From Gemmatimonadota bacterium (lineage in GTDB: Bacteria; Gemmatimonadota; Gemmatimonadetes; Gemmatimonadales; GWC2-71-9), in NCBI GenBank assembly GCA_041497135.1, contig JBGQFX010000009.1:128-64127 (forward strand): a DNA stretch of 64,000 bases. The letters run 5' to 3'. Positions 22,350-44,092 of the stretch are shown here, piece by piece. Positions within the stretch are counted from its first letter, which is position 1. Each line of letters starts with the position of its first letter. Position numbers and translations under genes: made by a program. The notes beneath the pieces are model-generated. The model saw nothing but the letters and a program-made list of their open reading frames with translations. It had not been told where the DNA came from and ran no database searches.

Positions 22350-23362
22350 TCGCCAGCGGCACCACATTCTGCATTGTGGTGCCCCTGACCGAGCGCCTCG
22401 ATCGCTTCCTGGCCGATCAGCTCGCGCTGTCCCGCACCCAAGCCGCACGCCTCATCGCCGACAAGCGCGTCAGCGCCGGCGGCGCCCCGTTGCGCGCCTC
22501 GGCCCAGCTCGAGCGGGGCGCCACCGTGACTGTCGAGTTCCCCCCCGACGCGCCACCGCGCACCTACAGTCCCAACACGAGCGAGCTCCGATTCGTGTAC
22601 GAGGACGAGCACCTGGCCGTGCTCGACAAACCGGCCGGGCTGGTCGTGCACCCCGGCCCGGGACATTGGGACGACTCGCTGGTCAACGCGCTCGTAGGGC
22701 GGGGCACGCCGCTCGCGCCCGGGGCCCCCGAAGGCCGCCCGGGCATCGTGCACCGGCTCGATCGTGACACCTCCGGGCTCCTGATCGTGGCGAAATCCGA
22801 TCTGGCACACCGTCGCCTGGCTCGCGCAATCGAGCGGCGTGAGATCCGCCGTGTGTATGCCTGCCTCGCGTGGGGTCACTTCGCCAAGAGCCCGGTCGAC
22901 ATCGAGGCGCCGATCGCCCGGCACACAGAGGATCGCAAGCGCATGACGGTGCGGGCGGGCGGTCGCCACGCGGTTACGCACGTCACGGTCATCGCCCGCT
23001 TCGCTTTGGTGGACCTGCTGCGCGTGCAGCTGGGCACCGGGCGCACACATCAGATCCGCGTCCATCTGGCCCACGTTGGTCACCCGGTGGTCGGCGATCG
23101 CGCGTACGCCTTCGGCGGCAGTCGGCGTGTGACGCCGTCCGACCGCCAGGCGGCCGAGCGGCTCGAAGCGCTGGCGCCGCGCCAGCTGCTGCACGCCGCC
23201 GAGCTCTCCTTCACGCATCCGGTGAGCGGCGCCCCGATCCAGCTGCGCTCGGAGTGGCCCCCGGATCTCCTGCCGGCGCTGGCTGAAGCGGCCGGCGACG
23301 CGAAATTGCTTGCTGAACGCAACCCCTTGCAGTATCTTGGTTTCGCTGCTTCGGATGGCTGA
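22346..23362 (+). CDS. rluD: RluA/RluD family pseudouridine synthase with S4 domain
   Basis: RLDRFLA S4 domain, KPAGLVVHP, HRLDRDTSG, TGRTHQIRVH. Confidence 0.9.
   Translation: MIASGTTFCIVVPLTERLDRFLADQLALSRTQAARLIADKRVSAGGAPLRASAQLERGATVTVEFPPDAPPRTYSPNTSELRFVYEDEHLAVLDKPAGLVVHPGPGHWDDSLVNALVGRGTPLAPGAPEGRPGIVHRLDRDTSGLLIVAKSDLAHRRLARAIERREIRRVYACLAWGHFAKSPVDIEAPIARHTEDRKRMTVRAGGRHAVTHVTVIARFALVDLLRVQLGTGRTHQIRVHLAHVGHPVVGDRAYAFGGSRRVTPSDRQAAERLEALAPRQLLHAAELSFTHPVSGAPIQLRSEWPPDLLPALAEAAGDAKLLAERNPLQYLGFAASDG
23310..23338 (+). promoter_or_regulatory. Internal sigma70-type promoter for the che/mgl cluster, inside the 3' end of rluD
   Basis: TTGCTG(23310-15)-17 bp-TATCTT(23333-38) in an AT-richer patch, 16 nt before the cheW ATG. 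Confidence 0.5.
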
Positions 23363-23798
23363 TGCGACGGTAGTTCGGCTCCTGGTGTTCCGGGTGGGCC
23401 CGCTCGCCTGCGCTGCCCATGCGGAGGTCGTGCGGGAGATTTTGCCACGGCTGCCGGCGATTCGCATTCCCGGGGCGCCGCAGGTCGTCGCCGGGCTGGT
23501 GAATGTGCGCGGCAGTCTGGTGACCGTCGTGGAAGGATGGCGCGCGCTGCAGCAACCGTCGGGCGCGGCGGAGGGTGGCACCACCGTGTTGCTGGAGGTC
23601 GGGGCCGAACGCCGCGCGCTCGGGTTCACGGTGGATGAAGTGCTGGACTTGTTAGCGATTCCGGACGACCAGCTGGAGCAGCGCCAGGCGCTGCCGGGTC
23701 TCGATCCCAAGCTGGTACGGGCGGTCGGTCGCCGCGGTGGGCAGGTGTTCGTGGTCCTCGATACCGAGGCTTTGCTGGCCCCCATTCTGACTTCCTAG
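23355..23798 (+). CDS. cheW: CheW-like coupling protein 1
   Basis: LLVFRVG...VREI...IPGAP..VAGLVNVRG...VLDTEALL. Confidence 0.88.
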   Translation: MADATVVRLLVFRVGPLACAAHAEVVREILPRLPAIRIPGAPQVVAGLVNVRGSLVTVVEGWRALQQPSGAAEGGTTVLLEVGAERRALGFTVDEVLDLLAIPDDQLEQRQALPGLDPKLVRAVGRRGGQVFVVLDTEALLAPILTS

Positions 23799-23807
23799 GG
23801 AGGGTCT

Positions 23808-24170
23808 GTGAGCCACTCTGTTCTCGTCTGCGACGATGCCATCTTCATGCGGACGATGATCAGCGACATCCTGGCGCAAGCGGGCTTCGAGATAGTCGGC
23901 GAGGCCGAGACGGGCGCGCAGGCCGTGGAGAAATACAAGCAGTTGAAGCCGGACCTGGTGACGATGGACATCGTGATGCCCGACATGGGCGGCATCGATG
24001 CCGTACGGGAGATCGTCAAGAACGATCCCGACGCCAAGATCCTGATGTGCAGCGCCATGGGGCAACAGGCCCTCGTGGTCGAGGCCATCCAGGCCGGGGC
24101 CAAGGACTTCGTCGTCAAGCCGTTCCAGCCGTCCCGGGTGCTGGAAGCCGTGCAACGCGTGCTCGGCTGA
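23808..24170 (+). CDS. cheY: Chemotaxis response regulator CheY, Bacillus/Thermotoga type
   Basis: DDAIFMR...LKPDLVTMDIVMP...CSAMGQQ...KPF; GGAGG RBS. Confidence 0.95.
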   Translation: MSHSVLVCDDAIFMRTMISDILAQAGFEIVGEAETGAQAVEKYKQLKPDLVTMDIVMPDMGGIDAVREIVKNDPDAKILMCSAMGQQALVVEAIQAGAKDFVVKPFQPSRVLEAVQRVLG

Positions 24171-24171
24171 C

Positions 24172-26073
24172 ATGGACCTGTCGCAGTACGCCGAGTTGTT
24201 CCTGGCCGAGAGCCGGGAACACTTGAGCGCCTGCAACCACTTGTTGCTGCAGTGGGAGCGTACACCCACGAGCCCCGAGCCGGTGGGGGGCATTTTCCGC
24301 GCGGTGCATACGGTGAAGGGGATGGCGGCCACGATGGGCTACGCCCGGGTGGCGGACCTCGCTCACCGGATGGAGAACCTGCTCGACCGGCTGCGGCGCA
24401 GCGGCAAGCCGCCCACGGGTGAGCTGCTCCAGCTGTTGTTCCGCGCTACCGATCTCCTGGAAAAGACCATCGATCTCGCCGCGACGGGGCGCGAGCGGGA
24501 CGCCGACGTGTCCGGTCTTGGCACCGAGCTGGATGCGGCGGCCAAGCGCGCCGGCGGCACGCCGGCGGGTCGGGGTGCCGGCAAGTCGGCTCCGGCCGTG
24601 GTCCCGGCGCCGCCTCCGCCGGTAGACGAAGCGGGATTGGAGGGGGGGCGGCTGGTCTCGGTCGTGCTGCGCGCGGAGGCCCCGCTCAAGGGCGGGCGGG
24701 CCCTGATCGTCTTGCGTCGCGCTCAGAGTCTCGGCACGGTCACCCACTTGTCGCCGCCCGCCGCCGCGTTCGAATCGGATGAGTTCGAGGGCCGGTTGTC
24801 GCTGCGGCTCGACAGCCGCGCGACGCCGGAGGAAATCGAGCGGCAGCTCGCGCTGGCGGGGGACGTGGAACGGGTGACCGTTGCCGGCTTCGACGCGGTC
24901 GGCGCCAAGGGCGACGCCACGACCACCGAGCGCAGCCGGCACATCCGTGTCGATCTGAAGCGGTTGGACGCGCTGATGGATCTGATCGGCGAGCTGGTCA
25001 CGGCACGCGGCCGGCTGAACGAGCTGGCGGCGGCGCGGCGGGACCCGGCGGTGGACGACGTGGCCATCCAGGTCTCCCGCCTCACGGGTGATCTCCAGTC
25101 AGAGATCATTCAGGCGCGCATGACGCCGGTGTGGCAGGTGTTTGATCGGTACCCCCGGCTGGTGCGCGACCTGGCGCAGCAGCTCGAGAAGCAGGTCGCT
25201 CTGCGCGTGGAGGGGAAGGAGATCGAGCTCGACCGGGCGATCCTGGACGAAATGGGCGATCCGCTGGTGCATCTGCTGCGCAACGCGGTGGATCACGGCA
25301 TCGAATCGCCGGCCGAGCGCAAACGCCATGGCAAGCGGCCCGAAGGGGAGATCGTGCTCGCCGCCGTGCGGGAGCGCGCCAGCGTCGCCATCAGCATCGC
25401 CGACGACGGACGCGGCATCGACCGCGAGAAGATTCTCGAGAAGGCCAAGCGCGATGGACTGGTCGACGCGCATCTGGAAGCGCTGAGCGACGACCAGCTG
25501 CTGCGGGTCATTGCCCGGCCCGGATTCTCCACCGCCCAGGCCGTCACCAGCGTCTCGGGGCGCGGCGTGGGCATTGACGTGGCGATGACGAAGATCCGCG
25601 CCCTGGGCGGAACGATCGAGATCCAGACCGAACTCGGTCGCGGCACGACCTTCGTGCTGCGGCTGCCGGTGACGCTGGCGATCGTGCGCGCCTTGATCGC
25701 CACGGTCGGGGGCGAGCGGTACGCCCTGCCGCTCACCTATGTGTCGGAAACGGTGGAGTTCGGCGCGGTCCCGATCACGACGATCGAGGGTCGCGAGGCG
25801 ATGGTGCTGCGCGACCGGGTGGTACCGCTGGTGCATTTGCGCGACCTGCTCGGCGCGCACGGCGGCGGCGCGCCGTCGCCGCGTCGGCCGGTAGTCGTGC
25901 TGCAGATGGGCGAACGGCGGACCGGCGTAGTGGTGGACGGGATGCTGGGCCAGCAGGAAATCGTGGTGAAGGGATTTGATGCTCCACAGGGGATGCTCCC
26001 GGTGTTCAGTGGAGCGACCATCATGGGCGACGGCATACCGGCGTTGATTCTGGACGCCGGCGGGCTCGTCTAA
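24172..26073 (+). CDS. cheA: Chemotaxis histidine kinase CheA (Hpt, P2, dimerisation, HATPase, P5)
   Basis: FRAVHTVKG, HLLRNAVDHG, DDGRG, GFST, SGRGVG, LPVTLAI. Confidence 0.97.
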   Translation: MDLSQYAELFLAESREHLSACNHLLLQWERTPTSPEPVGGIFRAVHTVKGMAATMGYARVADLAHRMENLLDRLRRSGKPPTGELLQLLFRATDLLEKTIDLAATGRERDADVSGLGTELDAAAKRAGGTPAGRGAGKSAPAVVPAPPPPVDEAGLEGGRLVSVVLRAEAPLKGGRALIVLRRAQSLGTVTHLSPPAAAFESDEFEGRLSLRLDSRATPEEIERQLALAGDVERVTVAGFDAVGAKGDATTTERSRHIRVDLKRLDALMDLIGELVTARGRLNELAAARRDPAVDDVAIQVSRLTGDLQSEIIQARMTPVWQVFDRYPRLVRDLAQQLEKQVALRVEGKEIELDRAILDEMGDPLVHLLRNAVDHGIESPAERKRHGKRPEGEIVLAAVRERASVAISIADDGRGIDREKILEKAKRDGLVDAHLEALSDDQLLRVIARPGFSTAQAVTSVSGRGVGIDVAMTKIRALGGTIEIQTELGRGTTFVLRLPVTLAIVRALIATVGGERYALPLTYVSETVEFGAVPITTIEGREAMVLRDRVVPLVHLRDLLGAHGGGAPSPRRPVVVLQMGERRTGVVVDGMLGQQEIVVKGFDAPQGMLPVFSGATIMGDGIPALILDAGGLV

Positions 26074-26082
26074 GGGGGTGGC

Positions 26083-26700
26083 ATGGAGGACGTCCGCGAT
26101 CTGAAAGAGCTGCAGATCGACGCGCTGCGCGAGGTCGCCAACATCGGCGCCGGGCACGCGGCGACCGCGCTGTCCCAGATGACCAACCGCCGCATCATGA
26201 TCAGCGTGCCGCAGATCAACATCGCGCGGCTCGAAGAAGTGGCGGAGCTGCTGGGTGATCCCCAGGCGGTGGTGGTGGCGGTGCTGATGCACATGCTGGG
26301 GGACCTGACGGGCCGCACGCTGCTGCTCTTTCCGGAAAAAGTGGGGCAGCGGTTGTGCGACATGCTGTTGCGTCGCGCGTCCGGTGCGACGACGGCCTTC
26401 GGCGCGCTGGAGCAGTCGGCGCTCAAGGAGGCGGGGAATATCCTGTCCGGGGCCTACATGAACGCCCTGTCGGACTTCATGGGGATGCTGCTGTTGCCGT
26501 CGGTGCCGAGTCTGGTGATCGACCTGTCGGCGGCGGTGCTCACCACTACGTATCTCAATTTCGGACACGACCGCGACTTCGTGTTCTGCGTCGAAACCGA
26601 ATTCCGCATCGACGCCGAGGAGGAGCTGCGCGGGCACTTCCTGCTGCTTCCCGACCTGGCCTCCCTCAAGGCGATCTTCGACGCGATCCGCGTGACCTGA
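26083..26700 (+). CDS. cheC: CheY-P phosphatase CheC
   Basis: Two active-site motifs, DALREVANIG and SALKEAGNI. Confidence 0.93.
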   Translation: MEDVRDLKELQIDALREVANIGAGHAATALSQMTNRRIMISVPQINIARLEEVAELLGDPQAVVVAVLMHMLGDLTGRTLLLFPEKVGQRLCDMLLRRASGATTAFGALEQSALKEAGNILSGAYMNALSDFMGMLLLPSVPSLVIDLSAAVLTTTYLNFGHDRDFVFCVETEFRIDAEEELRGHFLLLPDLASLKAIFDAIRVT

Positions 26701-29401: not shown

Positions 29402-30544
29402 ATGGCGATCGAAGGCCCGCTGCGGGAGCTCGGCATCCACGATGTCTTCCAGCTGCTGGATCTCAGCCGGAAGACCGGGGTGCTGCGCGTCACCTCCGAG
29501 CTCCGGCACAACGCCGGCACGATCTACTTCGACGACGGGGCGGTGATCTACGCGGAGATCCGCAGCAACCCCCACCCGTTGGGCGGTCTGCTGCTGCGCA
29601 GCGGCAAGATCACCGAAGCCGATCTCGAGCACGCGCGCGACATGCAGACGCGCCAGGGCGACCCGCGGCGACTCGGCGAGATTCTCGTTTCGCTCGGAAT
29701 CATCACGCCCCGCGAGCTGCAACGCCACGTGCGGTTTCAGATCGAGGAAGTGGTGTTCGAAGTCATCGGTTGGAACGAAGGCTACTTCTCGTTCACCGAA
29801 GGGCCGCTCACCGACCTGACTGCCGAAGCCACGGTCCGGATATCGACCGAAGCCCTCCTCATGGAAGGGGCGCGTCGCATCGACGAGTGGGCCCGGATCG
29901 AGAAACGTGTCCCGCACCTGGGCGTCGTGCCGACCTACGCCCCATCGATGCAAGGTGGAGACCTGGATCTGCTCCCGCCCGAGTGGGAAGTGCTGGCGCT
30001 GATCGACGGGGACCGCGATCTCCGGGCGATTGCGGCGACGCTGGCACGCTCCGATTTCGACATCGCCAAGACGCTTTTCGGTCTGGAGAGCGCCGGTCTC
30101 ATCACCCTGGTCGACCCCGGGACCGCGCCGCGCGGCCGCAGCAGCGCGCCCGATGCCGCCGTGCTGGTCGCGGAAGCCGAGGAGGCGTTCGGTCGCCACG
30201 ACCTGGACCGGGCCCGTGCCGCGGCGGAACGGGCCGCGGTCGTGCAACCGCACGATCCCGCCGTGCACTTGCTGCTGGGTCGTGTGCACCTGGAGGCCGG
30301 CCGGCCTGGCGAAGCGGTGGACGAGCTGCGCCGCGCGCTGCGGCTCGACGCCGGGGGGCTTTCCGCCTACCGCCTGCAGGGGTTCGCGCTGGTGCAGCTC
30401 GGGCGGTTCGCCGAAGCGGTCGAGCAATGGGACCAGTGGGAGCGCCTGGCCGTGAACGAGGAGCAGGAGACTCCCTATCGCGACGACGTGCTGTCGGCCA
30501 AGGCCGCCGCCCGGTTCCTGGGCGGAGCGCGTGCCCATGTCTGA
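29402..30544 (+). CDS. DUF4388 protein with MshEN-like motifs and C-terminal TPRs
   Basis: MAIEGPLRELGIHDVFQLL...KTGVL, RLGEILVSLGII, W.EGYFSF, LLMEGARRIDEW. Confidence 0.85.
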   Translation: MAIEGPLRELGIHDVFQLLDLSRKTGVLRVTSELRHNAGTIYFDDGAVIYAEIRSNPHPLGGLLLRSGKITEADLEHARDMQTRQGDPRRLGEILVSLGIITPRELQRHVRFQIEEVVFEVIGWNEGYFSFTEGPLTDLTAEATVRISTEALLMEGARRIDEWARIEKRVPHLGVVPTYAPSMQGGDLDLLPPEWEVLALIDGDRDLRAIAATLARSDFDIAKTLFGLESAGLITLVDPGTAPRGRSSAPDAAVLVAEAEEAFGRHDLDRARAAAERAAVVQPHDPAVHLLLGRVHLEAGRPGEAVDELRRALRLDAGGLSAYRLQGFALVQLGRFAEAVEQWDQWERLAVNEEQETPYRDDVLSAKAAARFLGGARAHV

Positions 30545-31379
30545 AGACGTCAAGACGTTATCGGCCGAGCTGGCCCGCGACCCCCAGAGCCTCGTGTTTC
30601 TGCGACTGGGAGAGCTGCTGCGCCAGAAACGGCAGTTCGACGCGGCCGCGCGCATCGCGCTGCACGGGTTGGAGCGGCACCAGCACCTGGCCGACGCGCA
30701 CGACCTGTACGCCCGCATTCTGGCCGACCGCCACGACTATGAGCACGCGTTCGACGAATGGGACATGACGCTGCGCATCGCGCCGCACCACACCGGGGCG
30801 TTGAAGGGTCTCGCCTTCCTCTATTTCAAGGTGGGGGACCTGGGACAGGCCGAGTCTCATCTCCAGGCGGCCCATCGTATCGCGCCCGACGATCCCAGCA
30901 TCGCTCAGGCGTTCGCCGTCATCCGTGGCGAAGCGCCGTCGTCCGGCGCCATGCTGCCGTCGCCGGACGATCCGGTTGCGGAGCCGCTGCCATCAGCCGA
31001 GACCGTCGCGCCGCTGCCGGAGACGCGCGTGTTTGCCGGCCTGGAAGGGGCGCAGGAAGGGCTGTTGCTGCTGGATGCCGCCGGCCTGGTGCTGGGCGGT
31101 GCGCTCAAGACCCCGGAGGGCGGCGACGTCACCGAGGCGGTCGCGGCGTATCTCGCGGGTGTGTCCTATGAGGCCGCCCGGACGGCCAAACTGCTCGGGT
31201 TGGGGGGGTGGCGCGGGCTGTCGGCGGAAGGCCAGTCCGGTCACGTGCACGTCGGCCAGCCAACCGCGGAGTCCATGCTGCTCGTCGTCCGGGACCGGTC
31301 GGTCCCGCTGGGACGCCTCGGTCTTCTGGCGCAGCGCGCGGCGCAGGCGGCGCGACGCTGGCTGGAGCGGCAGGGATGA
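30537..31379 (+). CDS. TPR-Roadblock/LC7 fusion protein
   Basis: N-terminal TPRs (DPQSLVF.RLGE); C-terminal LLLLDAAGLV...PLGRL Roadblock fold. Confidence 0.8.
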   Translation: MSEDVKTLSAELARDPQSLVFLRLGELLRQKRQFDAAARIALHGLERHQHLADAHDLYARILADRHDYEHAFDEWDMTLRIAPHHTGALKGLAFLYFKVGDLGQAESHLQAAHRIAPDDPSIAQAFAVIRGEAPSSGAMLPSPDDPVAEPLPSAETVAPLPETRVFAGLEGAQEGLLLLDAAGLVLGGALKTPEGGDVTEAVAAYLAGVSYEAARTAKLLGLGGWRGLSAEGQSGHVHVGQPTAESMLLVVRDRSVPLGRLGLLAQRAAQAARRWLERQG

Positions 31380-31726
31380 GCGCGGTCTACCTGCGGTCGC
31401 TCGATCTCATCACCCGCGTGCGCGGGGTCCGGGGGGCCATGGTCGTCGCACGGTCAGATGGCCTGGTGGTCGCCGAACAACTGATGGAGGGGATCAAAGG
31501 GAGCACGGTGGCGGCATTGACGGCCAGCCTCGCCGGCCGGCTGCACCGCGCGATGGTGGCGGCGGGGCTCGGTCCGAGCCAGTTCTGGCATCTACAGTGC
31601 GAGCAGGGCGCGGTGCTGGCCGTTCCGGCGGGCGACGGGTTACTGATGGTCGCGGTGACGGAGCCCGAGGTGAACGTCGGCTTGGTGCGGCTCGAGCTGC
31701 TGCGCGCCGCGGAGGCGGCCGCGTGA
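31376..31726 (+). CDS. Roadblock/LC7 domain protein
   Basis: VRGVRGAMVV..DGLVV...VNVGLVRLEL. Confidence 0.88.
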   Translation: MSAVYLRSLDLITRVRGVRGAMVVARSDGLVVAEQLMEGIKGSTVAALTASLAGRLHRAMVAAGLGPSQFWHLQCEQGAVLAVPAGDGLLMVAVTEPEVNVGLVRLELLRAAEAAA

Positions 31727-32196
31727 CCACGATCCGCGCAGTCGAGACGTGGACGCTCGACCCGCTCACCACCTACGTCGTGGAAGCGGGCGCGCGGCTC
31801 GTGCTGCTGATGACGCCGGCCGGCCAGGTGCTGGCGCAGTCGGGATTCTTGCGCGCGGTGGATGTCATGTCGGCATCGGCCCTCGGGGCCGCGATCATGG
31901 CCTCGACGACCGAGCTGGCGCGCCAGCTGGGGCAGGCCCCGTTCGCGGCGCTCAACCATCAGGGCCAGCGTCATGGCATTTTCCTGAGTGGTTTCGTCAC
32001 CGATCGTGGACCGCTGATCGTGCTCGTCGTCTACGAGCTCGACGTTTCGTCGCTTGGCTTGGTGCAGTTATTCTTGGAGCAGCTTGTGGCGGACTTGCGT
32101 GCCGCCAGCCCGAAGACGGGCGCCACGCGAAAAGTGCTGGCGGCCGATTTCGAGCGCGAACTCAACGAGAGCCTGAACACGCTCTTCGGGAGATAG
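31723..32196 (+). CDS. mglB: MglB-like Roadblock protein with C-terminal amphipathic helix
   Basis: LLMTPAGQVLAQ.G...SSLGLVQL and tail FERELNESLNTLF; directly upstream of mglA. Confidence 0.78.
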   Translation: MTTIRAVETWTLDPLTTYVVEAGARLVLLMTPAGQVLAQSGFLRAVDVMSASALGAAIMASTTELARQLGQAPFAALNHQGQRHGIFLSGFVTDRGPLIVLVVYELDVSSLGLVQLFLEQLVADLRAASPKTGATRKVLAADFERELNESLNTLFGR

Positions 32197-32202
32197 GCGT
32201 TC

Positions 32203-32802
32203 GTGTCCCTCGTCAACTTTACGACCCGCGAGATCACCTGCAAGATCGTCTACTACGGTCCGGGGCGCTCCGGGAAGACGACGAACCTGCACTACATCTA
32301 CGGCCGCGTGCCCGAATCCCGCCGCGGCCGTATGGTGTCGCTCGCCACCCAGACGGACCGGACGCTGTTCTTCGACTTCCTGCCCATCGACCTGGGGCAG
32401 ATCTCGGGGTTCACCACCCGATTCCAGCTCTACACCGTGCCGGGGCAGGTCTATTACAACGCCACGCGCCGGCTGGTTCTGCAGGGGGCCGACGGCGTGG
32501 TATTCGTGGCGGACAGCCAGGCGCGACAGCTGGACGAGAACTTGGAGAGCCTGCAAAACCTGCAGGCGAACCTGCTCGAGCACGGCATCGACATACGCGC
32601 GCTGCCGGTCGTGATGCAGTACAACAAGCAGGACCTGCCCCGCGAGCTGATCCTCCAGCTGCTCGAGCTGGACGACGCCCTCAACTTCCGCGGCGTGCCG
32701 AGCTTCCCGGCCGATGCGCTGCACGGCAACGGGGTGTTCGAGACGCTGAAGGCGATCACCGAGCTGGTGCTGCGGCGCCTGGCCCAGGGGGCGCCGGCGT
32801 GA
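32203..32802 (+). CDS. mglA: MglA-family small Ras-like GTPase
   Basis: [24 protein letters not shown] (intrinsic Arg finger), TVPGQ, VFVADSQ, NKQD. Confidence 0.95.
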
Positions 32803-34754
32803 CTTCCGCGCTGAACCCGAAGTTCACCTTCGACACCTTCGTGGTGGGCGCCGCCAACCGGCTGGCCGTGACGGCGGCGCGCACTGTGGCGGAAAGCCCC
32901 GGCTCCGCCTACAACCCGCTCTTCATATACAGCGGCTCCGGGCTCGGCAAGACGCACTTGCTCATGGCGATCGGCGCCAATGCCAAGCGGTTGGCCCCCG
33001 CGCTCAACGTCGAATACCTGACCCTGGACGAGTACGTCGAAGCGTTCCACGCCGCCATCGCGGCCGGTCAGGGCGACGCGTTCCGCCGTCGGTTCCAGAC
33101 GGTCGACGTCCTGCTGGTCGACGACGTGCAGTTCCTCGCCAACCGCCGGGAGATGCAGACCGAGTTGTTGCGGCTGTCGGAGGCGTTGCAGATCGCCGGC
33201 CGCCAGATCGTGCTCACGAGTGATCGGCCCCCCGCCGAGATCGAGGCGCTGGACGAGCGGCTGATTTCCCGCTTCTCGGGCGGCCTCGTCGTGGATATCG
33301 GGGCCCCGGACTACGAGACGCGGGTCGCCATCCTGCGCCGCAAGGCCGAGGAGCGCGGCGCCGAATTCCCGCCCGGCGTGCTCGAGACGGTGGCGGCCGC
33401 GGAATTCACCAACGTGCGCGAGCTGATGGGCGTGCTCAACCGGCTGGTCGCGTACCAGGCCGTGAATGAGACGCCGCTCACGGCGGAGGCGGCGCAGGGG
33501 CTCCTGGGTCTCGAGCCGCGCCCGAGCGCCGGCGCGGCTGCGACGTCCGCCGCCGAGCGGATCGGCCACCCGGACGAGTTCGCCGCGTTTCTCACCGACG
33601 TGACGGTGACGGTCGGCAAGGCGGTCGAAGCATGGCGGGCGCGGATCGCGGAGGCGATCCTGCGCTGGGAAGGCGAAGGCTATCGGACGCGGCGGCTCGA
33701 GTCGCTGCTTGAGCAGGAAACCCCGCTCGCCCCGGACGAGGAGATCGCCACCTACGCCCGCGACGTCGAGCGGCTGCGGGCGCTCGAAGCCGAAGTGTCA
33801 CAGTTCGATCCGCAAGCGGCGGGGCAGAGCGTGTTCCGCGACCCGGAGCGGCTTGCCGAGGCCGAGGAGGCGGCGGCGCGAGTGCGCGCCGGTGCGGCGC
33901 CGCCGCCCGCGCCCTCCGCCGCGATGCCGTTCAGCACGTTCGCCGTCGGCGCGTCGAACCAGCTCGCCGTGAACGTGGCCCGCGAAGTGCTGGAGGAGCC
34001 CGGCCGCCGCTACAACCCGCTGGTGCTGCTCGGCAAGAGCGGCGTCGGCAAATCGCACCTGCTCAACGCGCTGGGGCTCGAGCTGGCACAACAGCCGGGC
34101 GCCATCGTGGCGTGCCTGTCGACGCAGGCGTTCATCGACGAGCTGATCGTCGCGATCGACGGCAACCGGATGGAATGGTGGCGCGCCCGCTACCGCCGCG
34201 CCACGGCGCTGCTGCTGGACGACATCCACCTGCTGGGCGGCAAGGACCGGACGCAGGAAGAGCTGTTCAATCTGTTCAACCTGTTCCAGGACCTGGAACG
34301 ACAGCTGGTGTTCACCGCGCCGGCCCACCCCAAGACGCTGCGGGGGATCGAGCAGCGCATCGCCTCCCGGCTGGAGGGCGGCCTGGTGGTGGAGCTGGTC
34401 GAGCCGGATCGCGACGTGCGTCGTACGGTCATCCGGCGCGCACTCGGAGCGCAGGATGTGCCCGAGGATCCGGTGCTGATCGACTATCTCGCCGATCGCC
34501 CGGCCGATTCGGTGCGCAGCCTGATGGGAGTGCTGCAGCGGGTGGTGAGCGCGGCGGCGGCGCAGGACGTGCCCGTGAGTGCCGGACTCGCGCGCGAGGT
34601 GCTCGAGGGCGGCACAGCCGCCGAGCGGCGCCGCACCGTCGGATTCCGCACATCGGGGATCGTGGTGTCGAGCGCGGGGGGCGTGCGCAGCCGCGAGAAG
34701 ATCGTGTGGGATTGGGCTTCGCCCGCGGACCGCCTGATCGAGGAGCTGCGCTAG
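32799..34754 (+). CDS. Tandem DnaA/Hda-type AAA+ protein (two ATPase domains, no DnaA domain I or IV), 651 aa
   Basis: Domain 1: [51 protein letters not shown]. Domain 2: [43 protein letters not shown]. Start is the GTG overlapping the mglA stop. Confidence 0.9.
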
Positions 34755-36373
34755 TGGCGATCAAGGGCTCGCTGCGGGAAGCCTCCCTGCCGGACGTGCT
34801 CCAGCTGCTGGCGCTCGGGCAGAAAACCGGCTGTCTCTCGATCGCCGATCGCTCGAACTTCGGCTACATCTTTTTCGATCGCGGCCGCATCTGCTACGCC
34901 TCGATCGTCAACCGCCGCGACCGCCTCGGCGACATCCTTGTCAAGCACGAGAAGATCAGCCAGGAGCAGCTCGACGCCGCCGTGGCGCGCCAGGCGCGCG
35001 AGCGCGACAAGAAACTGGGCGAGATCATGGTGGACCAGGGGGCGATCTCGCAGCCCGAGTTGGAGCGCTACATCCGGGTGCAGATCGAAGAGGCCGTGTA
35101 TTTCCTGTTCACCTGGACCCAGGGTACGTTCAACTTCGAAGCCGACGTCCGCGCGGAGCGCCAGGACTTCCTCGTGTCGATCAACCCCGAGTCGCTCCTG
35201 CTCGAAGGGGCGCGCCGGGTGGACGAGTGGAGCCTGATCGAGAAAAAGGTGCCGTCGTTCGACATCATCTTCATCGTCGATCACGAGCGACTCGATATCA
35301 GCGAGGCCACGCTCACCGAAACGCAGCAGCGCATCCTGCCATTGCTCGACGGCTCCCGCGACGTCAACCAGATCATCGAAGACTCCGGGCTGGGAGAATT
35401 CGAGATCGGCAAGGCCCTGTACGGGCTGATCACCGCTGGCTTCCTGCATCGCGCGGGACGCACCACCTCGGCGGAGCAGCAGAAAATGAGCGACGCCCGC
35501 GTCGAGGAGCACCGCAACCTCGGCGTGGCGTTCTATAAGACCGGAATGCTGGACGAGGCGGCCCGGGAGTTCCGGCGCGTCGCCGAGCTGCGCGCCGGCG
35601 ATCCCAACGCGATGTTTTTCCTCGGCCTCGTGGCGCTCAAGCAGGCGCGCTGGCGCGAAGCGATGGAATCGCTGCGGTCCGCGGCGGAGAAAGGCGGCAG
35701 TCGCCCTGCGGTGCTGCACAATCTGGGATTTGCCTACGAGCAGCTGGGGCGGCTGGACGAAGCCGAAGCGTCCTGCGCCGAGGCGGCGTCGCGGGCGCGG
35801 ACCGATCCGCGCATCTATCTGGGGTGGGGCATCGTCGCGCTGAAACGCGGCGACCACACCGGCGCCGGTGGGCGGCTGGACCGGGCCAAGGAGCTGTACG
35901 GCTCGCAGCAGCCGCCGGCGGTGTGGTATTGGGCGCGGACGCTGGCGGCGGGGTTGGGCAGCGACTTCGAGTCCGCCGAGCATATCGGCGCGGCCGGGAT
36001 CGCGGCCTATCCGCAGAGCGCGGTATTGCGCAACAACCTCGCCGTGCTGCGCGAGCTGAGCGGCGATCTGCGCGGCGCCGAGGATCTGGTGCGGGTGGCG
36101 ATCCAGGACGAGCCGTCGCAGCCGCAGCTCTCCAAGAACCTCGGCGACCTCGCGTATCGCGCCTCACGCTATGACGAGGCGTGGACCGCGTATCGCCGGG
36201 CGGTGGAGCTCGCCCCCGACCTGGGGGACGACGTCTACTTCAAGCTGGGCAACATCGCCTACAAGCGAAACGACCGCGAGCTCGCCGCCCAGCTCTGGCG
36301 GCGGGCGCTCGAGCTGAACCCGAGTCACGAATTGGCGAAAACGAACCTGGAGACCTTGAGCACGCTGCAGTGA
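34754..36373 (+). CDS. Second DUF4388 protein with MshEN-like motifs and TPRs
   Basis: AIKGSLREASLPDVLQLL...KTG, RLGDILV/KLGEIMV, LLLEGARRVDEW, C-terminal TPRs. Confidence 0.87.
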   Translation: MAIKGSLREASLPDVLQLLALGQKTGCLSIADRSNFGYIFFDRGRICYASIVNRRDRLGDILVKHEKISQEQLDAAVARQARERDKKLGEIMVDQGAISQPELERYIRVQIEEAVYFLFTWTQGTFNFEADVRAERQDFLVSINPESLLLEGARRVDEWSLIEKKVPSFDIIFIVDHERLDISEATLTETQQRILPLLDGSRDVNQIIEDSGLGEFEIGKALYGLITAGFLHRAGRTTSAEQQKMSDARVEEHRNLGVAFYKTGMLDEAAREFRRVAELRAGDPNAMFFLGLVALKQARWREAMESLRSAAEKGGSRPAVLHNLGFAYEQLGRLDEAEASCAEAASRARTDPRIYLGWGIVALKRGDHTGAGGRLDRAKELYGSQQPPAVWYWARTLAAGLGSDFESAEHIGAAGIAAYPQSAVLRNNLAVLRELSGDLRGAEDLVRVAIQDEPSQPQLSKNLGDLAYRASRYDEAWTAYRRAVELAPDLGDDVYFKLGNIAYKRNDRELAAQLWRRALELNPSHELAKTNLETLSTLQ

Positions 36374-37203
36374 GCGAATCGGCCGAGGAGCAGGCGTTCC
36401 GGGCCCTGACCGATAAGATCACCCGGGCGCGCGGCATCTGCTGCGACGCGTACAAGGACCGGTGCCTGAAGCGGCGCATCGCGGTGCGCATGCGGGCCCG
36501 CGGCGTGCACAGCTTCGCCGACTACAGCCGGGTGCTGGACGGCGATGCGCACGAGTACGACCTGCTGCTCGACGCGCTCACCATCAACGTCACCAAGTTC
36601 TTCCGCAACCCGGAAACCTGGGCGGCGCTGGCGCCGCATCTGTTGGAGCGCTGGCGGGCGAGCGCCGGCGCGTTCGTCGCCTGGTCCGCGGGCTGCGCGT
36701 CGGGGGAAGAGCCCTACACCGTGGCCATCGCGCTGGCCGAAGTGGCCCGCGGCTCGCTCACGTCCGATCGGCTGCCACGCGCGCGCGTCATCGCGACCGA
36801 CATCGATCGCGTCAGCCTTGAGCGCGCCCAGGCCGCGCGCTATCCGGCCACCGCCTATTCCGAGATGCCCGTCGAGCTGGCGCGCCGCTGGCTCGAGCCG
36901 ACCGCGCCGGACGGCACGCGCGCCCCGGTCGCCGCGATTCGCGCCCTGGTCGATGTGCGGCGCCTCGACCTCACGCGCGAGCGGTCCCCGGAGACCGCCG
37001 ATGGACTCGACCTGATCGTGTGCCGAAACGTGGTGATCTACTTCGACCGGGAGACCCAGGAGCGGCTGTTCCAGACCTTCGCCCAGGCGCTGAAGCCCGC
37101 CGGCGTGCTGCTCCTGGGCAAGGTCGAAACCCTGCTGGGCCCCGCGCGGGAGCGGCTGCGGCTGCTCGACGCGCGCGAGCGCATCTACCAGAGGCCCGCG
37201 TGA
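36370..37203 (+). CDS. cheR: Protein-glutamate O-methyltransferase CheR
   Basis: TINVTKFFRN, WSAGCASGEEPY, ATDID, CRNVVIYFD. Confidence 0.95.
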   Translation: MSESAEEQAFRALTDKITRARGICCDAYKDRCLKRRIAVRMRARGVHSFADYSRVLDGDAHEYDLLLDALTINVTKFFRNPETWAALAPHLLERWRASAGAFVAWSAGCASGEEPYTVAIALAEVARGSLTSDRLPRARVIATDIDRVSLERAQAARYPATAYSEMPVELARRWLEPTAPDGTRAPVAAIRALVDVRRLDLTRERSPETADGLDLIVCRNVVIYFDRETQERLFQTFAQALKPAGVLLLGKVETLLGPARERLRLLDARERIYQRPA

Positions 37204-37685
37204 CCGCGCGCGAGCAGTTCGTCCGCGTGGCCGAGTGGGCCGTGGGGCGTGAGGGCGTGATCGTCTCCCTGGGGCTCGGCTCCTGTGTCGCGATCATGCT
37301 GCACGATCCACGCGCATGCATCGGCGGCATGGCGCATGTGCTGCTGCCCTCGAAGAGCCTGTCCCACGACCAGGACAAGCCGGCGAAGTTTCCCGAGACC
37401 GCCGTGCCGTTTCTGGTCCAGCGCCTCGTCGCCGCTGGCGCGGACCGGCATCGGCTGGTGGCGAAGCTCGCGGGGGGCGCCAGCATGTTCGCGCAGCTCA
37501 TGACGCCGGGCGCGGTACAGATGGGCGAGCGCAACATCGCGGCGTCCCGATCGGTGCTGCGCGAAGCCGCGATCCCCATCATCGGCGAATCCGTGGGCGG
37601 CGAGCGAGGCCGCTCGGTACGGTTCCACGTCGCCGACGGGCACGTGGAGAGCCACACGGTGGGCGGTGATGAAGTCGTCTTCTAA
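37200..37685 (+). CDS. cheD: Chemoreceptor glutamine deamidase CheD
   Basis: [29 protein letters not shown]. Confidence 0.95.
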
Positions 37686-38766
37686 GGGCCGGCCCACGGT
37701 CCTCGTGGTGGACGACAGCGCGCTGATGCGACGTGTGCTCAGCGACGTGCTGAGCGGCGAGCGGGGCGAGGGACCGTTCCGCGTCGTCGCCACCGCGCGA
37801 GACGGCTTCGACGCGGTGCAGAAGGTGCATCAGCTGCAGCCCGACGTGGTCACGATGGATCTCGAGATGCCGGAGCTCGACGGGCTCGGCGCCATCGGGT
37901 ACATCATGTCGGAAACGCCGCGCCCGATCGTGGTCGTGAGCGCGCACGCGGGACCCGGAACGGAGGCGGCGATCCGGGCGCTCGAGCTGGGCGCGGTCGA
38001 GATCGTCGCCAAGCCGGTCGACGCGACGCGGGAGGCCCTGGTCAGCATGGGCCCGCGGCTGATTGCGGCCGTGCACGCGGCGCTGGCGGCCGACGTGTCG
38101 CGCCTGCCGGTGCTCGCCCGGCCGCCGACGCCCGCGCCGCGCGCCCCGGCGCTCGAGTTGGGCCGGCGGGCGCACGTCGCCGTCGCCATCGCGGCGTCGA
38201 CGGGCGGGCCGCGGGCGCTGGCGGAAGTGCTGCCGCGGCTGCGGGTGGGCCTACGGGCCGCGGTGCTGGTGGTGCAACACATGCCGCCGCGGTTTACGCG
38301 CAGTCTGGCCGAGCGCCTGTCCAGCATGAGCGCGCTGCGGGTGGTGGAAGCGGACGCGGGCGCTCCGCTGGTGGCCGATACGGCGTACGTCGCTCCGGGC
38401 GATTATCATATGCGAGTGATCCCGGCGGAGGACGGTCCCGTGATTGCCCTGGACCAGGGGCCGCCCGTGTGGGGCGTGCGTCCGGCCGCGGACCCGCTGT
38501 TTCGCTCCGTGGCGCTCGTGTTCGGGCCGCGCGCTGTGGGGGTCGTGCTGACGGGCATGGGACGAGATGGAGCGGAAGGGTTGCGGGCGATCCATGACGC
38601 CGGCGGCGGGGGGTTCGCACAGGACAAGGACTCGGCGGTGATCGCAGGGATGCCCACGGCGGCGTTTCAGGCTGGTGGCGTGGATGCGGTGGTGCCGCTG
38701 GCGCAGATGGCCGATCGCATCGCCGCCGAGCTGGTGCGCCGCGGCGGGATGGGAGGCCGCGCGTGA
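37669..38766 (+). CDS. cheB: Methylesterase response regulator CheB
   Basis: REC domain plus ASTGGP, QHMP and LTGMGRDG catalytic motifs. Confidence 0.96.
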
Positions 38767-39170
38767 GCATGGGATTCCTGTTGGTGCGTGCCGAACGGCG
38801 TCCGTACGGGCTGCCGTTGGACTGTGTCGTCGAGGTGACGGATCTGACCGAAGTGCTGGAGGTGCCGCGGGCCGAGGTGGCGGTGCGGGGGTTGACGCCG
38901 CTGCGCGGGCGCTTGGTGCCGTTGGTGCATCTGGCGGCGTTTCTTGGCCGGCGCGCACCGCCAGCCGAGCGGGGTCGCGCCGCCGTACTGGTGCAGCTGG
39001 GGGGGCGCTTCGTGGCCTTCGAGGTGGACGACGCGGACGAGGTGGTGCGAGAGGCCCCGCTGCCGGTACCCGACGGCGCCTCGCTGCCGTGGGCGGCGGG
39101 CGTGGCGCTGCGTGGTGACGGCCTGGTGCCGATTCTGGATCTCGAGGCGCTGGGGGACCGTATCGGATGA
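38763..39170 (+). CDS. cheW: CheW-like protein 2 (short, divergent)
   Basis: YGLPL..VVEV...[17 protein letters not shown]...PILDL. Confidence 0.85.
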
Positions 39171-39646
39171 CGACGACCACCACGGGCGACGACGTCCAGC
39201 TGGTCACGTTCCGCGTGGCCGGTCAGGACTTCGCGTTCAACATCTTCCAGGTCGAGCGGATTCTCCGCTACGAATCGCCGGCGCCGCTGCCCAAAGCCCC
39301 GGACTTCCTGGAAGGGGTGCTGCAGTACCAGGGTGGCCCGGTGCCGGTGATCGACCTGCGCAAGCGCCTCGGCGTCGAGGCGCCGCTCAAGGACGACACG
39401 CGTATCATCGTGCTGGACTGGGATGGCGGCAAGATCGGCTTCGTGGTGGATACGGTGACCGAAGTGCTGCAGATCGGCGCTGGGGACGTGATCCCGCCGC
39501 CGGCGATCGTCAAGGGGCTCGCCGCCGAGTACATCACCGGTCTCGTCGGCCGTGAGGCACGCACCATCATCGTGCTCAACACGGCGAAGCTGCTCGCATC
39601 GAAGGAGAAGTTGGCCCTCACCACGGCCCTCAAGGGGTCGACCTGA
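39167..39646 (+). CDS. cheW: CheW-like protein 3
   Basis: QLVTFRV, LPKAPDFLEGV, PVIDLRKRL, GFVVD.V.EV. Confidence 0.92.
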   Translation: MTTTTTGDDVQLVTFRVAGQDFAFNIFQVERILRYESPAPLPKAPDFLEGVLQYQGGPVPVIDLRKRLGVEAPLKDDTRIIVLDWDGGKIGFVVDTVTEVLQIGAGDVIPPPAIVKGLAAEYITGLVGREARTIIVLNTAKLLASKEKLALTTALKGST

Positions 39647-40512
39647 TGCGCGAATCTCCGATGACCGCCTTGCGCGTCGAGTACGACGCGATCGCGCAGC
39701 GCCTCGACAACGCCGGCACGCACGGGGAGCGGGATGCGGTCAAGCAGGAGATCATCTTCTTCTTCAAGCAGGTCGATACGCTGCTGGGTGAGGTGGGGCA
39801 GCTGAAGGAAGACATCCGGGTGCTGGTGGACAAGTACAAGCAGCTGCAGGCGGCATCGACCGCCGAAGCGGCCGCGCCGGAGTTCACGGGCATTCGTCCC
39901 GCCGTGAAGGCTGACCACATCGGGGCGTCGACCTTCATCGAGAAGGGATGGAGCCTGATCTCGCTCGGCGATCATGACGGGGCGATTCAGGCGCTGCAGA
40001 AGGCGTTGCAGCTCTCGCCGGGCGAAACCCAGGCGGAATCGCTGCTCGGCTGGGCGCAAATGCTGCACGGCGACTATGACGACGCGCTGTCCACGTTTCA
40101 GAAAGTCCTGATGAAAGAGCCCGCCAATTCGCTCGCCCGCATCAACGTCGGCTACATCTGCCTCAAGAAGCGCATCTTCGGCGAAGCGATCGAGCACTTA
40201 TCCAAGGCGATTCGCCTCGACAACGACAAGAAGGCGACGCTGTACGCGCATTTCTATCTCGGACTCGTGTATCTGAACCGCGAGATGTATGAAGACGCGC
40301 AGACGTTCTTCCAGAAGACCCTGAAACTCGGTCCCAACCTGATTGACGCCTATTACGAGCTCGGACGCGCCTTCTGGTTCGGCGGCGATCAGGAGCAGGC
40401 GCGTCGGTCGTGGGACGAGGGATTCAAGGCGAACAAGTTCAATCCCTGGGGCCGCAAGTGTCAGGAGACGCTGACGCTCGTGGCTCAGGGGGAGGCCCCC
40501 CCGCGTCCCTGA
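39646..40512 (+). CDS. Protein with N-terminal coiled coil and C-terminal TPRs
   Basis: Heptad-rich N-terminus (about aa 6-70) followed by about five TPRs; ATG overlaps the cheW3 stop. Confidence 0.88.
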   Translation: MRESPMTALRVEYDAIAQRLDNAGTHGERDAVKQEIIFFFKQVDTLLGEVGQLKEDIRVLVDKYKQLQAASTAEAAAPEFTGIRPAVKADHIGASTFIEKGWSLISLGDHDGAIQALQKALQLSPGETQAESLLGWAQMLHGDYDDALSTFQKVLMKEPANSLARINVGYICLKKRIFGEAIEHLSKAIRLDNDKKATLYAHFYLGLVYLNREMYEDAQTFFQKTLKLGPNLIDAYYELGRAFWFGGDQEQARRSWDEGFKANKFNPWGRKCQETLTLVAQGEAPPRP

Positions 40513-40754: not shown

Positions 40755-40769
40755 ACGACTCGCGTGAAC

Positions 40770-40843
40770 GGGCGAATAGCTCAGCGGTTCAGAGCGCCTG
40801 CCTTACACGCAGGATGTCGGGGGTTCGAATCCCTCTTCGCCCA
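40770..40843 (+). tRNA. tRNA-Val(TAC)
   Basis: Acceptor GGGCGAA/TTCGCCC, anticodon arm CCTGC-CTTACAC-GCAGG, T loop TTCGAAT; CCA not encoded. Confidence 0.97.
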
Positions 40844-40877
40844 CTGGGGTACGACTGCCAAACGGAGGTCTAACCGC

Positions 40878-42789: not shown

Positions 42790-42818
42790 CCTGAACCCGC
42801 CTCGCGGGACGAAGTGTC

Positions 42819-42856
42819 CGGCTCCGCCTGCCTCGGCATGCGGGGCCGTCTTTTTT
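42819..42856 (+). terminator. Intrinsic terminator after tRNA-Asp
   Basis: Stem CGGCTCCGC...GCGGGGCCG with inner TGCC/GGCA, followed by TCTTTTTT. Confidence 0.75.
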
Positions 42857-42876
42857 CACCGAACCGGAGCGTCGAT

Positions 42877-43803: not shown

Positions 43804-44092
43804 AGGCCGCCACTGGTTCGTGTTCTGGCTCGCGGCCGCCTGCCTGGCGTTGTGGCTCGTCGTTTGGCGGCAAACCGACAGTTTCCGCCTCGCGCGCGAG
43901 CTGGGGGACACCCGGACCGTTCGTATCGCGCTCGAGGGTCGGTTGAGCGACTACGAGCGCCGGATCCGGGTGGCCACCAGCCGGGAGCAGCTCATGAGAC
44001 GGGTCGCCCCCCGCCTCGGGCTGCGATCGCCGCGCGACTCCGAGATCATGCGGATCCCTGTGCCGCCCGATTCGGGCGCGGAACCACGCTGA
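43793..44092 (+). CDS. ftsL: Cell division protein FtsL-like
   Basis: One TM plus coiled coil, located between rsmH and ftsI. Confidence 0.75.
   Translation: MALRGRHWFVFWLAAACLALWLVVWRQTDSFRLARELGDTRTVRIALEGRLSDYERRIRVATSREQLMRRVAPRLGLRSPRDSEIMRIPVPPDSGAEPR

Follow-up and report, generated by a model that had tools for sequence, protein, structure and literature searches.

A tandem DnaA-type AAA+ protein in a Che/Mgl operon of Gemmatimonadota: a candidate signaling ATPase and predicted partner of a PATAN-TPR protein

AAA+ modules of the DnaA type are textbook parts of the replication machinery, and to our knowledge their sole accepted offshoots are the Hda-like regulators of DnaA and the helicase loaders. 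Here we describe a gene encoding two such modules in one chain, which is found in a 64,000-nucleotide stretch of DNA (hereafter the window, to which positions refer unless a contig is named) from a member of the Gemmatimonadota, a phylum of abundant, little-studied soil and sediment bacteria (assembly GCA_041497135.1, contig JBGQFX010000009.1, positions 128 to 64,127). The gene (32799..34754, plus strand) lies in a cluster of chemosensory (che) and polarity (mglA and mglB) genes and is followed directly by a gene for a PATAN(DUF4388)-TPR protein. We propose, with a probability of about 0.6, that its product, the tandem protein, is a DnaA-derived ATPase with a non-replicative role that serves as the nucleotide-dependent partner of this PATAN-TPR protein in a Frz-like Che/MglA-MglB polarity module of the Gemmatimonadota. 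The module most likely directs cell polarity or motility driven by type IV pili. The fold of the protein and the clade to which it belongs are known, and it is the architecture, the predicted docking tail and the genetic context that are new.

The gene runs from a GTG start codon at 32799 to a TAG stop at 34752-34754 in DNA of about 70% G+C and specifies 651 residues. This start is sound because the homologues share the same beginning, MTSALNPKF. The Bac_DnaA family (PF00308) was matched in two stretches of the protein (E 3.7e-100), the remaining Pfam matches were to generic P-loop families only, and neither Bac_DnaA_C (PF08299, domain IV) nor DnaA_N (domain I) was found among all Pfam families at E ≤ 0.01. 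A profile search of the genome placed the two PF00308 matches at C9:32938-33423 and C9:34054-34521, corresponding to window positions 32811-33296 and 33927-34394, with scores of 194.8 and 145.7 bits. Domain III begins at residue 5, and the four residues that precede it, read directly from the sequence, do not contain the N-terminal beta-clamp-binding motif of Hda, which we take to be QL[SD]LF. An AlphaFold2 model built from 50 family sequences has a predicted local distance difference test score (pLDDT) of 87.9 and a predicted template modeling score (pTM) of 0.49, at which the position of one module with respect to the other is unreliable. It contains complete AAA+ modules, each with base and lid, at residues 1-236 (module 1) and 376-603 (module 2), with disorder at 241-261, a helical linker at 261-365, a second disordered segment at 606-631 and then a short tail, and no helix-turn-helix or other helical domain is present in the model after residue 603. 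Both modules keep the mark of initiator-clade AAA+ proteins, an insertion of two helices between strands 2 and 3. Module 1 has the Walker A sequence SGSGLGKT (32931-32954), the Walker B DD pair, sensor I (SDR), the arginine finger segment RLISRF and sensor II (NVRE). Module 2 has the Walker A sequence GKSGVGKS (34032-34055) and retains the arginine finger (RIASRL) and the sensor II arginine, with the sensor I aspartate replaced (TAPAHP); in an alignment to E. coli DnaA that aspartate is kept in the first copy and proline stands in its place in the second.

A first-pass annotation, made by a model from the letters of the window, had described two DnaA AAA+ domains, no domain I, no helix-turn-helix domain IV, no Hda clamp motif, a set of catalytic motifs with sensor I kept in copy 1 and lost in copy 2, and translational coupling to mglA, and all of these points hold on closer analysis. 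It had put the helical linker at about 155 residues, which must be corrected to about 140 residues between the modules, some 105 of them helical. No fold could be assigned to this linker. Modeled alone (pLDDT 82.8) it gave generic helical-bundle matches only, the best being the cytoplasmic domain of EzrA (Z 6.3, root-mean-square deviation (rmsd) 3.4 Å over 113 residues), which is below the meaningful level for helical models, and a search of the ESM Atlas with the linker gave no usable match.

The tandem protein is not the replication initiator of this organism's genome. A canonical DnaA of 456 residues with domains I, III and IV, whose presence elsewhere the first-pass annotation had proposed to confirm, is encoded on contig C103 of the same genome (3.40 Mb in 116 contigs, 94% complete), and the single match to PF08299 in the genome is on that contig. 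Identity to E. coli DnaA is 47% for module 1 and 35% for module 2, compared with 24-26% to E. coli Hda for both. Module 1 is also about 50% identical to domain III of B. subtilis DnaA, the structure of which (8bv3) was the best Foldseek match (template modeling (TM) score to the target 0.95, rmsd 1.5 Å, 47% identity). The NCBIfam DnaA equivalog model TIGR00362 gives the tandem protein a score of 493.6 against a cut-off of 343.9, covering only profile positions 102-335, which are the AAA+ part, and the Hda model TIGR03420 gives 185.8, under its cut-off of 194.8, with the other Hda models far under theirs. The tandem AAA+ proteins p97, Cdc48 and Rix7 were matched by Foldseek at TM scores of 0.26-0.30 and rmsd values of 27-30 Å. 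A defense-system assignment was considered and dropped, as PADLOC gave P-loop-level matches only (mad8, 7.9e-08; DrmD, 9.6e-05).

In a quick maximum-likelihood tree of 67 rows, taken from 121 extracted domains and covering 23 tandem loci, 20 canonical DnaA loci, the domains of the window and E. coli DnaA and Hda, module 1, module 2 and the canonical Gemmatimonadota DnaAs form separate clades with support of 99, 99 and 93 in the Shimodaira-Hasegawa-like approximate likelihood ratio test (SH-aLRT), the order among them being unsupported. In a second tree, from which six long-branch loci (L035, L037, L038, L043, L046, and L048) were removed and to which 11 domains from Candidatus Fermentibacteria were added, the canonical DnaAs of both phyla cluster (SH-aLRT 95), modules 1 and 2 are weakly sisters (89) and the Fermentibacteria paralogues join them weakly (80). 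In both trees the paralogue branches are several-fold longer than those of canonical DnaA, and nothing groups the modules with the one Hda sequence included. That Hda and one outside DnaA were the outgroups, and they permit no statement on donor or date. A tree of each copy against DnaA and Hda had been suggested at the outset, and in the first of these trees each copy has a clade of its own. Based on these sequence comparisons we regard modules 1 and 2 as old paralogues derived from DnaA.

What has been kept and what has been relaxed in these paralogues is seen from the residue counts in Table 1, for which 29 members of the tandem family and 29 canonical Gemmatimonadota DnaAs were aligned to E. 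coli DnaA; we assume that the arginine finger, sensor I, AID-1 arginine and H-motif have the roles assigned to them in the E. coli literature. The residues of the ATP site are kept in both modules, and therefore nucleotide binding, and probably hydrolysis, is under selection in the tandem family. The arginine finger, the sensor I aspartate, the AID-1 arginine and the H-motif residue are conserved family-wide in the manner of DnaA in neither module, and by this measure the surfaces required for the DnaA filament on single-stranded DNA are not under selection. The two modules complement each other, sensor I, which acts in cis, tending to be retained in module 1 and the finger, which acts in trans, in module 2. 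A composite site would account for this pattern, with module 2 reaching into the ATP site of module 1 either within a chain or between chains.

Table 1. Occurrence of key DnaA residues in canonical Gemmatimonadota DnaAs and in the two modules of the tandem family
Residue	Canonical DnaA	Module 1	Module 2
Walker A Lys	29/29	29/29	29/29
First Walker B Asp	29/29	29/29	29/29
Sensor II Arg	29/29	27/29	27/29
Arg finger	29/29	14/29	24/29
Sensor I Asp	29/29	16/29	0/29
AID-1 Arg	29/29	3/29	19/29
Hydrophobic H-motif residue (single-stranded DNA)	29/29	0/29	11/29

The tandem protein is widespread in the phylum. Of 201 Gemmatimonadota genomes, 134 contain its family-specific linker, as a single copy in nearly all cases, with family counts of 94/96 (f1), 27/38 (f2), 3/3 (f3), 3/4 (f4), 1/1 (f5), 3/3 (f8) and 2/23 (f7), and it was matched in no genome of families f6 (11 genomes), f9 (2), f10 (13), f11 (3) and f12 (3). 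The tallies over 201 genomes include four flagged as unpublished (G057, G097, G157, and G182), and no statement made here depends on these alone. A second linker match lies on another contig in two genomes (G050:C50 and G173:C120), and these may be second copies of the family. In a protein search at least 120 full-length relatives of 76-97% identity were recovered, all of about 650 residues, and a profile-free search of 1.84 billion representatives gave about 45 full-length representatives at 50% clustering among the best 150 matches. The named relatives are all Gemmatimonadales or Gemmatimonadota, the majority of the matches carrying no name. The tandem form is therefore no assembly artefact, a concern raised with the first description, as relatives carry it too. 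In one single-contig genome (G127:C1:303560-306818, locus L044) the tandem gene reads as two frames (residues 1-223 and 223-650), by either a true split or a frameshift, and so, in two pieces, does the PATAN-TPR gene.

In an alignment of 29 sequences at 32-93% identity (A1), both Walker A GK pairs, both Walker B aspartates and both sensor II arginines are invariant or nearly so, as are several positions of the linker (DEF..FL, WxGEGxRT and FRDPD) and E633, K634 and W639 in the tail. The second module is less constant and is degenerate, truncated or missing in some lineages. Two genomes encode module 1, the linker and the tail with module 2 absent, one group has a module 2 that lacks the lid and is followed directly by the tail, and the f7 form has a module 2 with neither Walker A nor Walker B, then a long acidic stretch and then the terminus ...ERVIWEWPRPEERLVEEVD-end. 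The tail is retained in all of these variants and in the full tandem form. Judged from these alignments, the invariant core of the protein consists of module 1, the linker and the C-terminal tail (EKxVWxWP...LIEE-xx-end). All 119 close relatives carry the tail motif, as do 111-117 of the 118 relatives of a distant member. All rows of A1 stop just past the EE pair, 28 of the 29 two residues later and the last, P0139, in a slightly shifted register (...IDEEIG). The C-terminus thus follows the pattern [IVL]-E-[ED]-x-x at a constant distance from the end, and in one genome the protein ends literally in ...LVEEVD.

The genetic context of the tandem gene is conserved as well. In the window the GTG start of the gene shares the sequence GTGA with the TGA stop of mglA, and its stop shares one base with the GTG start of the PATAN-TPR gene at 34754 (TAGTG), so that the tandem gene is tightly coupled on both sides. 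The upstream gene is a true mglA, with an E-value of 6.5e-74 to the solved M. xanthus MglA; the MglB assignment is weaker (E 3.7e-07 to a solved structure). Among close loci mglA is upstream and the PATAN-TPR gene downstream in 30 of 30, a set that includes the locus of the window and one unpublished genome, and of the 20 distant loci, again with one unpublished genome, all have the PATAN-TPR gene downstream and 18 have mglA upstream, with the majority of the Che, TPR and Roadblock genes still recognizable. For the 47 published loci examined, the mglA stop and tandem start overlap by 4 nucleotides in at least 33 of the 45 that bear mglA, several of the other 12 being artefacts of start estimation, and the tandem stop and PATAN-TPR start overlap by 1 nucleotide in 32 of 47 and lie within -1 to +4 nucleotides in 45 of 47. 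These synteny and identity checks establish the tandem gene as a conserved member of an operon with mglA and mglB. Two f7 genomes have no Che or Mgl genes at the locus, yet the tandem gene and PATAN-TPR pair remains, in the order ileS, rluD, tandem gene, PATAN-TPR, peptidase and NtrC-type regulator; rluD stands directly before the tandem gene in both, and the same ileS...rluD genes precede the cluster of the window. A PATAN-TPR orthologue was found in 144 of the 201 genomes (f1, 95/96; f2, 35/38; f3, 3/3; f4, 4/4; f5, 1/1; f8, 3/3; f7, 2/23; none in f6 and f9-f12), and its tallies run parallel to those of the linker, the f7 positives being the same two genomes. Because the pair persists alone in f7 and the two distributions nearly match, we consider the tandem gene and PATAN-TPR to be the minimal conserved unit.

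As the tail is the most persistent accessory part of the tandem protein and PATAN-TPR its most persistent neighbor, these two were chosen for a complex model. ESMFold2 was run with tail residues 600-651 and the full PATAN-TPR protein of 539 residues, each with its own alignment. The three runs gave interface scores (ipSAE) of 0.85, 0.81 and 0.85, with a median of 0.85, against 0.01 for the highest of three controls. In calibration 58 of 80 solved complexes came up to the mark, as did 2 of 110 mismatched pairs; these counts apply only roughly here, since the alignments were our own. At least 71% of the contacts are common to the runs and the pLDDT of the partner is at least 56. In the model, tail residues 627-651 run along TPR residues 258-494, which is about 240 residues of superhelix, with E633 and K634 against 458-465 and 427-431 and residues 645-647 against 319-326 and 353. 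The contacted residues of PATAN-TPR include the invariant D465 and the nearly invariant K461 and N323 (alignment A4). The model thus supports binding of the tail in the PATAN-TPR groove, and it is this predicted contact that speaks against the possibility, raised with the first-pass annotation, that the tandem protein interacts with neither DnaA nor any product of the cluster.

The cluster as a whole is co-directional, in the order cheW-cheY-cheA-cheC-TPR-PATAN/TPR-TPR/Roadblock-mglB-mglA-tandem gene-PATAN/TPR-cheR-cheB-cheW-cheW-TPR-TPR (Table 2). It sits between ileS...rluD (18264-23362) and mraW-ftsI-murE-murF-mraY (42814-49972), and mraW is also downstream in 9 of the 20 distant loci within reach of the fetched DNA. 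Between 23310 and 42665 there are cheA, cheY, cheC, cheR, cheB and three cheW genes and no gene for a methyl-accepting chemotaxis protein (MCP); the four MCPsignal matches of the genome are all on other contigs (C4, C6, C24, and C58). Six ATPases of the T2SSE family score over the cut-off in the genome of the window, and flagellin was not matched in it at 94% completeness. Elsewhere in the window, upstream of the cluster, there are a hybrid histidine kinase of 1321 residues that carries a receiver besides numerous PAS and GAF domains (5805-9770, plus strand) and a protein with a DAC domain of the cyclic di-AMP synthase type (15140-16228, plus strand). An open reading frame (ORF) of 1364 codons at 1421-5515 on the minus strand, with an unusual G+C of 0.57/0.57/0.85 by codon position, lies in a stretch of lower G+C. 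In one sequencing run, guessed to be of RNA, there are contigs about 90% alike that cross the mglA/tandem junction and the tandem/PATAN-TPR junction; as the library type is a guess and a contig over two genes does not prove one transcript, we draw nothing about expression from them. Identical short DNA contigs from two other runs cover parts of the gene, none of them the whole, and add nothing beyond the relatives.

Table 2. Parts of the tandem gene and other genes of the cluster, in window coordinates
Feature	Position	Strand	Basis or remark
AAA+ module 1 (residues 1-236, base and lid)	32799..33506	+	Pfam, AlphaFold2, alignment to DnaA
Family-specific helical linker (residues 261-365)	33579..33893	+	Alignment, AlphaFold2, genome counts
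AAA+ module 2 (residues 376-603)	33924..34607	+	Pfam, AlphaFold2, alignment to DnaA
C-terminal tail (residues 627-651), modeled in the groove of the PATAN-TPR protein encoded next	34677..34751	+	Alignment, complex model
cheW (23310-23798), cheY (23808-24170), cheA (24172-26073), cheC (26083-26700)	23310..26700	+	
Large TPR protein, 897 residues	26704..29397	+	
First PATAN(DUF4388)-TPR protein, 380 residues	29402..30544	+	
TPR and Roadblock/LC7 protein	30531..31379	+	
MglB-like Roadblock/LC7 protein	31498..32196	+	Start not fixed, within ORF 30925-32196
mglA (Ras-like polarity GTPase), 199 residues	32203..32802	+	
Second PATAN(DUF4388)-TPR protein, 539 residues	34754..36373	+	GTG start; predicted tail partner
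cheR	36181-37203 (ORF as listed)	+	True start probably after 36373
cheB	37666-38766	+	
cheW	38763-39170	+	
cheW	39167-39646	+	
TPR protein	39646-40512	+	
TPR protein	40764-42665	+	End of cluster at 42665

DnaA-type modules also occur in other fusions. P0220 is a tandem DnaA-type protein with a C-terminal receiver domain, P0247 and P0273 combine TPR with Bac_DnaA, and P0198 and P0206 are very long proteins with two DnaA modules behind an N-terminal MshEN, the N-terminal domain of PilB-type ATPases. P0198 is encoded on a contig of Candidatus Fermentibacteria (L087, 3397-21320) in the order pilD, MshEN+Bac_DnaA (983 residues), MshEN (436 residues), MshEN+Bac_DnaA (409 residues), MshEN+2xBac_DnaA (1993 residues), a TonB_C protein, pilB, an unknown gene and pilT. 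This Fermentibacteria genome (L087; L088-L097) has 12 PF00308 matches, which include one canonical DnaA with domain IV, five proteins of 390-640 residues that join a receiver to Bac_DnaA and one further MshEN+Bac_DnaA protein, and the DnaA-type AAA+ module seems to serve there as the output domain of response regulators. According to the accessible part of a preprint on cyanobacteria, the PATAN domains of PatA-type regulators bind PilC as well as the N-terminal region of PilB1, a pilus ATPase, and PATAN is sometimes fused to the GspE_N/PF05157 domain (bioRxiv 10.1101/2021.06.11.447907). The available portion of a second source reports that some mglA genes have PATAN neighbors and describes a link between Frz and MglA (PMC4316618). 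The term 'dnaa' has no occurrence in the text of PMC4316618, and in the literature covered neither the tandem protein nor a DnaA-type module connected with Mgl, Che, PATAN or pili is described, though supplementary tables (e.g., S2 of PMC4316618, on mglA neighborhoods) might list it. Taken by association, the fusions, the PATAN connection and the content of the genome point to signaling in pilus function or polarity.

Based on these data we put forward a hypothetical mechanism for the tandem protein. We propose that through its conserved C-terminal peptide (EKxVWxWP...LIEE-x-x-COOH) it binds in the TPR groove of the downstream-encoded PATAN-TPR protein, so that ATPase and adaptor form a stable pair. 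Module 1 would be the working ATP site, and the main contributions of module 2, where present, would be a trans-acting arginine finger and a nucleotide site for regulation. ATP-dependent association of the modules from head to tail, within or between chains, would then switch or cluster the PATAN-TPR adaptor, which in turn would act on the MglA/MglB switch and on the pilus motor under the control of the flanking Che pathway. In this scheme the anatomy, the conservation, the gene order with its coupling and the relaxed DnaA residues are observed, the contact between tail and TPR comes from a model, and the ATP-driven switching, the connection to the pilus and any contact with MglA are what we infer.

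Several observations weigh against this proposal. The connection to pili is made by analogy, and no pilus gene was found in the cluster of the window. Its position next to mraW and the other division and cell-wall genes would fit a role in the cell cycle as well, and since module 1 of the window keeps every catalytic motif of DnaA at about 47-50% identity, co-assembly with DnaA itself is chemically conceivable. The suggestion that the finger of module 2 serves the site of module 1 comes from residue counts. As to the complex, solved TPR-peptide structures may contribute to the model's pass, and the true TPR partner could be another of the five other TPR proteins of the cluster.

The first-pass annotation had offered a choice between a pseudo-dimeric DnaA regulator that connects Che/Mgl signaling to replication initiation and an initiator ATPase repurposed as a polymerizing scaffold. 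Of these, repurposing outside replication fits the operon, the modeled contact between tail and TPR, the fusions and the loss of DnaA-specific residues, and the regulator has found no positive support. We nonetheless keep some weight on a replication or cell-cycle function, in which the modules would co-assemble with DnaA, cap it or stimulate its hydrolysis in the manner of Hda so that Che/MglA signaling gates initiation, because module 1 of the window is an intact DnaA-like site, which also passes the DnaA equivalog cut-off, and because the cluster abuts the dcw genes here as it does mraW in a share of the distant loci. We consider this quite unlikely given that residues invariant in DnaA are relaxed (Table 1), that domains I and IV are missing with no room for a clamp motif, and that the similarity to Hda is low by both identity and model score. 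Moreover, some lineages can do without module 2, on which the idea of a pseudo-dimer is based, the neighbor that persists most is PATAN-TPR and not a replication gene, and the paralogues evolve faster than DnaA as judged from branch lengths. Also unlikely is a AAA+ remodeler that is recruited by its acidic tail to TPR adaptors and there assembles or disassembles polarity or chemosensory complexes instead of working as a switch or scaffold. The [IVL]-E-[ED]-x-x terminus with its one ...LVEEVD example, the tail modeled in a TPR groove, the six TPR proteins of the cluster and the strict retention of the ATP-site residues would all agree with such a function, but the structural similarity to p97 and Cdc48 is low, the likeness to EEVD ends is an analogy, and we know of no DnaA-clade AAA+ protein that acts as an unfoldase.

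DnaA domain III binds single-stranded DNA through its initiator-specific helices, and with the two-helix insertion kept in both modeled modules it might be argued that the tandem protein tethers a soluble chemosensory and polarity complex to the chromosome, the more so as three cheW genes and cheA are present in the cluster with the MCPs encoded elsewhere. This is very unlikely as the hydrophobic H-motif residue found in every canonical DnaA occurs in none of the module 1 and in 11 of the 29 module 2 sequences, and there is no domain IV to bind duplex DNA. Least probable of all is a catalytically inert relic that merely bridges proteins. Lineages in which module 2 is absent or has lost Walker A and B would agree with it, but the Walker A lysine and Walker B aspartate of module 1 are invariant, its sensor II arginine is nearly so, and close relatives are 88-97% identical over their full length.

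If the proposed role as a PATAN-TPR partner in a polarity module is correct, then a conserved single-copy tandem ATPase in a chemosensory-MglA-PATAN operon would show that the engine of DnaA has been recruited to polarity or motility signaling, and the receiver- and MshEN-fused relatives, the latter in a pilus cluster of another phylum, would likewise represent recruitment for signaling. A bolder and more tentative reading, which we think possible though doubtful, is that the DnaA AAA+ engine gave rise in Gemmatimonadota and Fermentibacteria to a class of signaling ATPases wired to receivers, MshEN, TPR adaptors and MglA, in which the tandem protein would be an ATP-driven, filament-forming organizer of polarity that is tethered by its tail to PATAN-TPR and sites type IV pili. 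If so, it would be a nucleotide switch of a kind new to bacterial cell polarity. In the proposed polarity role the tandem protein would also provide a concrete, testable handle on how polarity is organized in Gemmatimonadota. It should also be noted that databases name it 'DnaA/Hda family protein', 'DnaA ATPase domain-containing protein' or, wrongly and in one source, 'chromosomal replication initiator protein DnaA'. As it passes the DnaA equivalog cut-off and bears the DnaA name, the genomes seem to hold two dnaA genes, and pipelines for origin prediction or marker genes that are keyed on dnaA can be misled.

Compared with known systems, the tandem protein resembles DnaA domain III in that both modules belong to PF00308 and keep Walker A and B, sensor II and the two-helix insertion. 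It differs from DnaA in having two modules in one chain without domains I, II and IV, in the addition of a family-specific helical linker and a predicted docking peptide at the C-terminus, in its location in a Che/Mgl/PATAN operon with a normal dnaA elsewhere, and in that its modules form clades apart from the canonical DnaA of the same phylum with DnaA-invariant residues relaxed. With Hda and HdaA it shares the DnaA-like AAA+ fold without a DNA-binding domain, but it is nearer to DnaA (35-47%) than to Hda (24-26%), is tandem rather than single and does not have the extension with the clamp motif. Hsp70 and Hsp90 are recruited by their EEVD ends to TPR co-chaperones, and in the tandem protein, too, a short acidic C-terminal peptide at a constant distance from the end is modeled in a TPR groove; its motif is longer (EKxVWxWP...LIEE-xx) and is carried by a DnaA-type AAA+ protein.

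The Frz and MglA/MglB system of M. xanthus, as far as the available part of the literature describes it, likewise combines Che genes with MglA, a Roadblock homologue of the GTPase-activating protein and TPR proteins, whereas in Gemmatimonadota these parts are united in one cluster that includes a DnaA-type ATPase. The pairing of a PatA-type PATAN protein with PilB1 in cyanobacteria, for which binding is reported in the accessible part of the preprint cited above, is similar in joining a PATAN protein and an ATPase within a motility pathway linked to Che. The Gemmatimonadota ATPase is of the DnaA type and not a PilB-type secretion ATPase, and the contact modeled for it is from tail to TPR rather than from PATAN to the N-terminus of the ATPase. 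The PF05157/MshEN domain that PilB1 carries is also the one fused to DnaA-type modules in Fermentibacteria.

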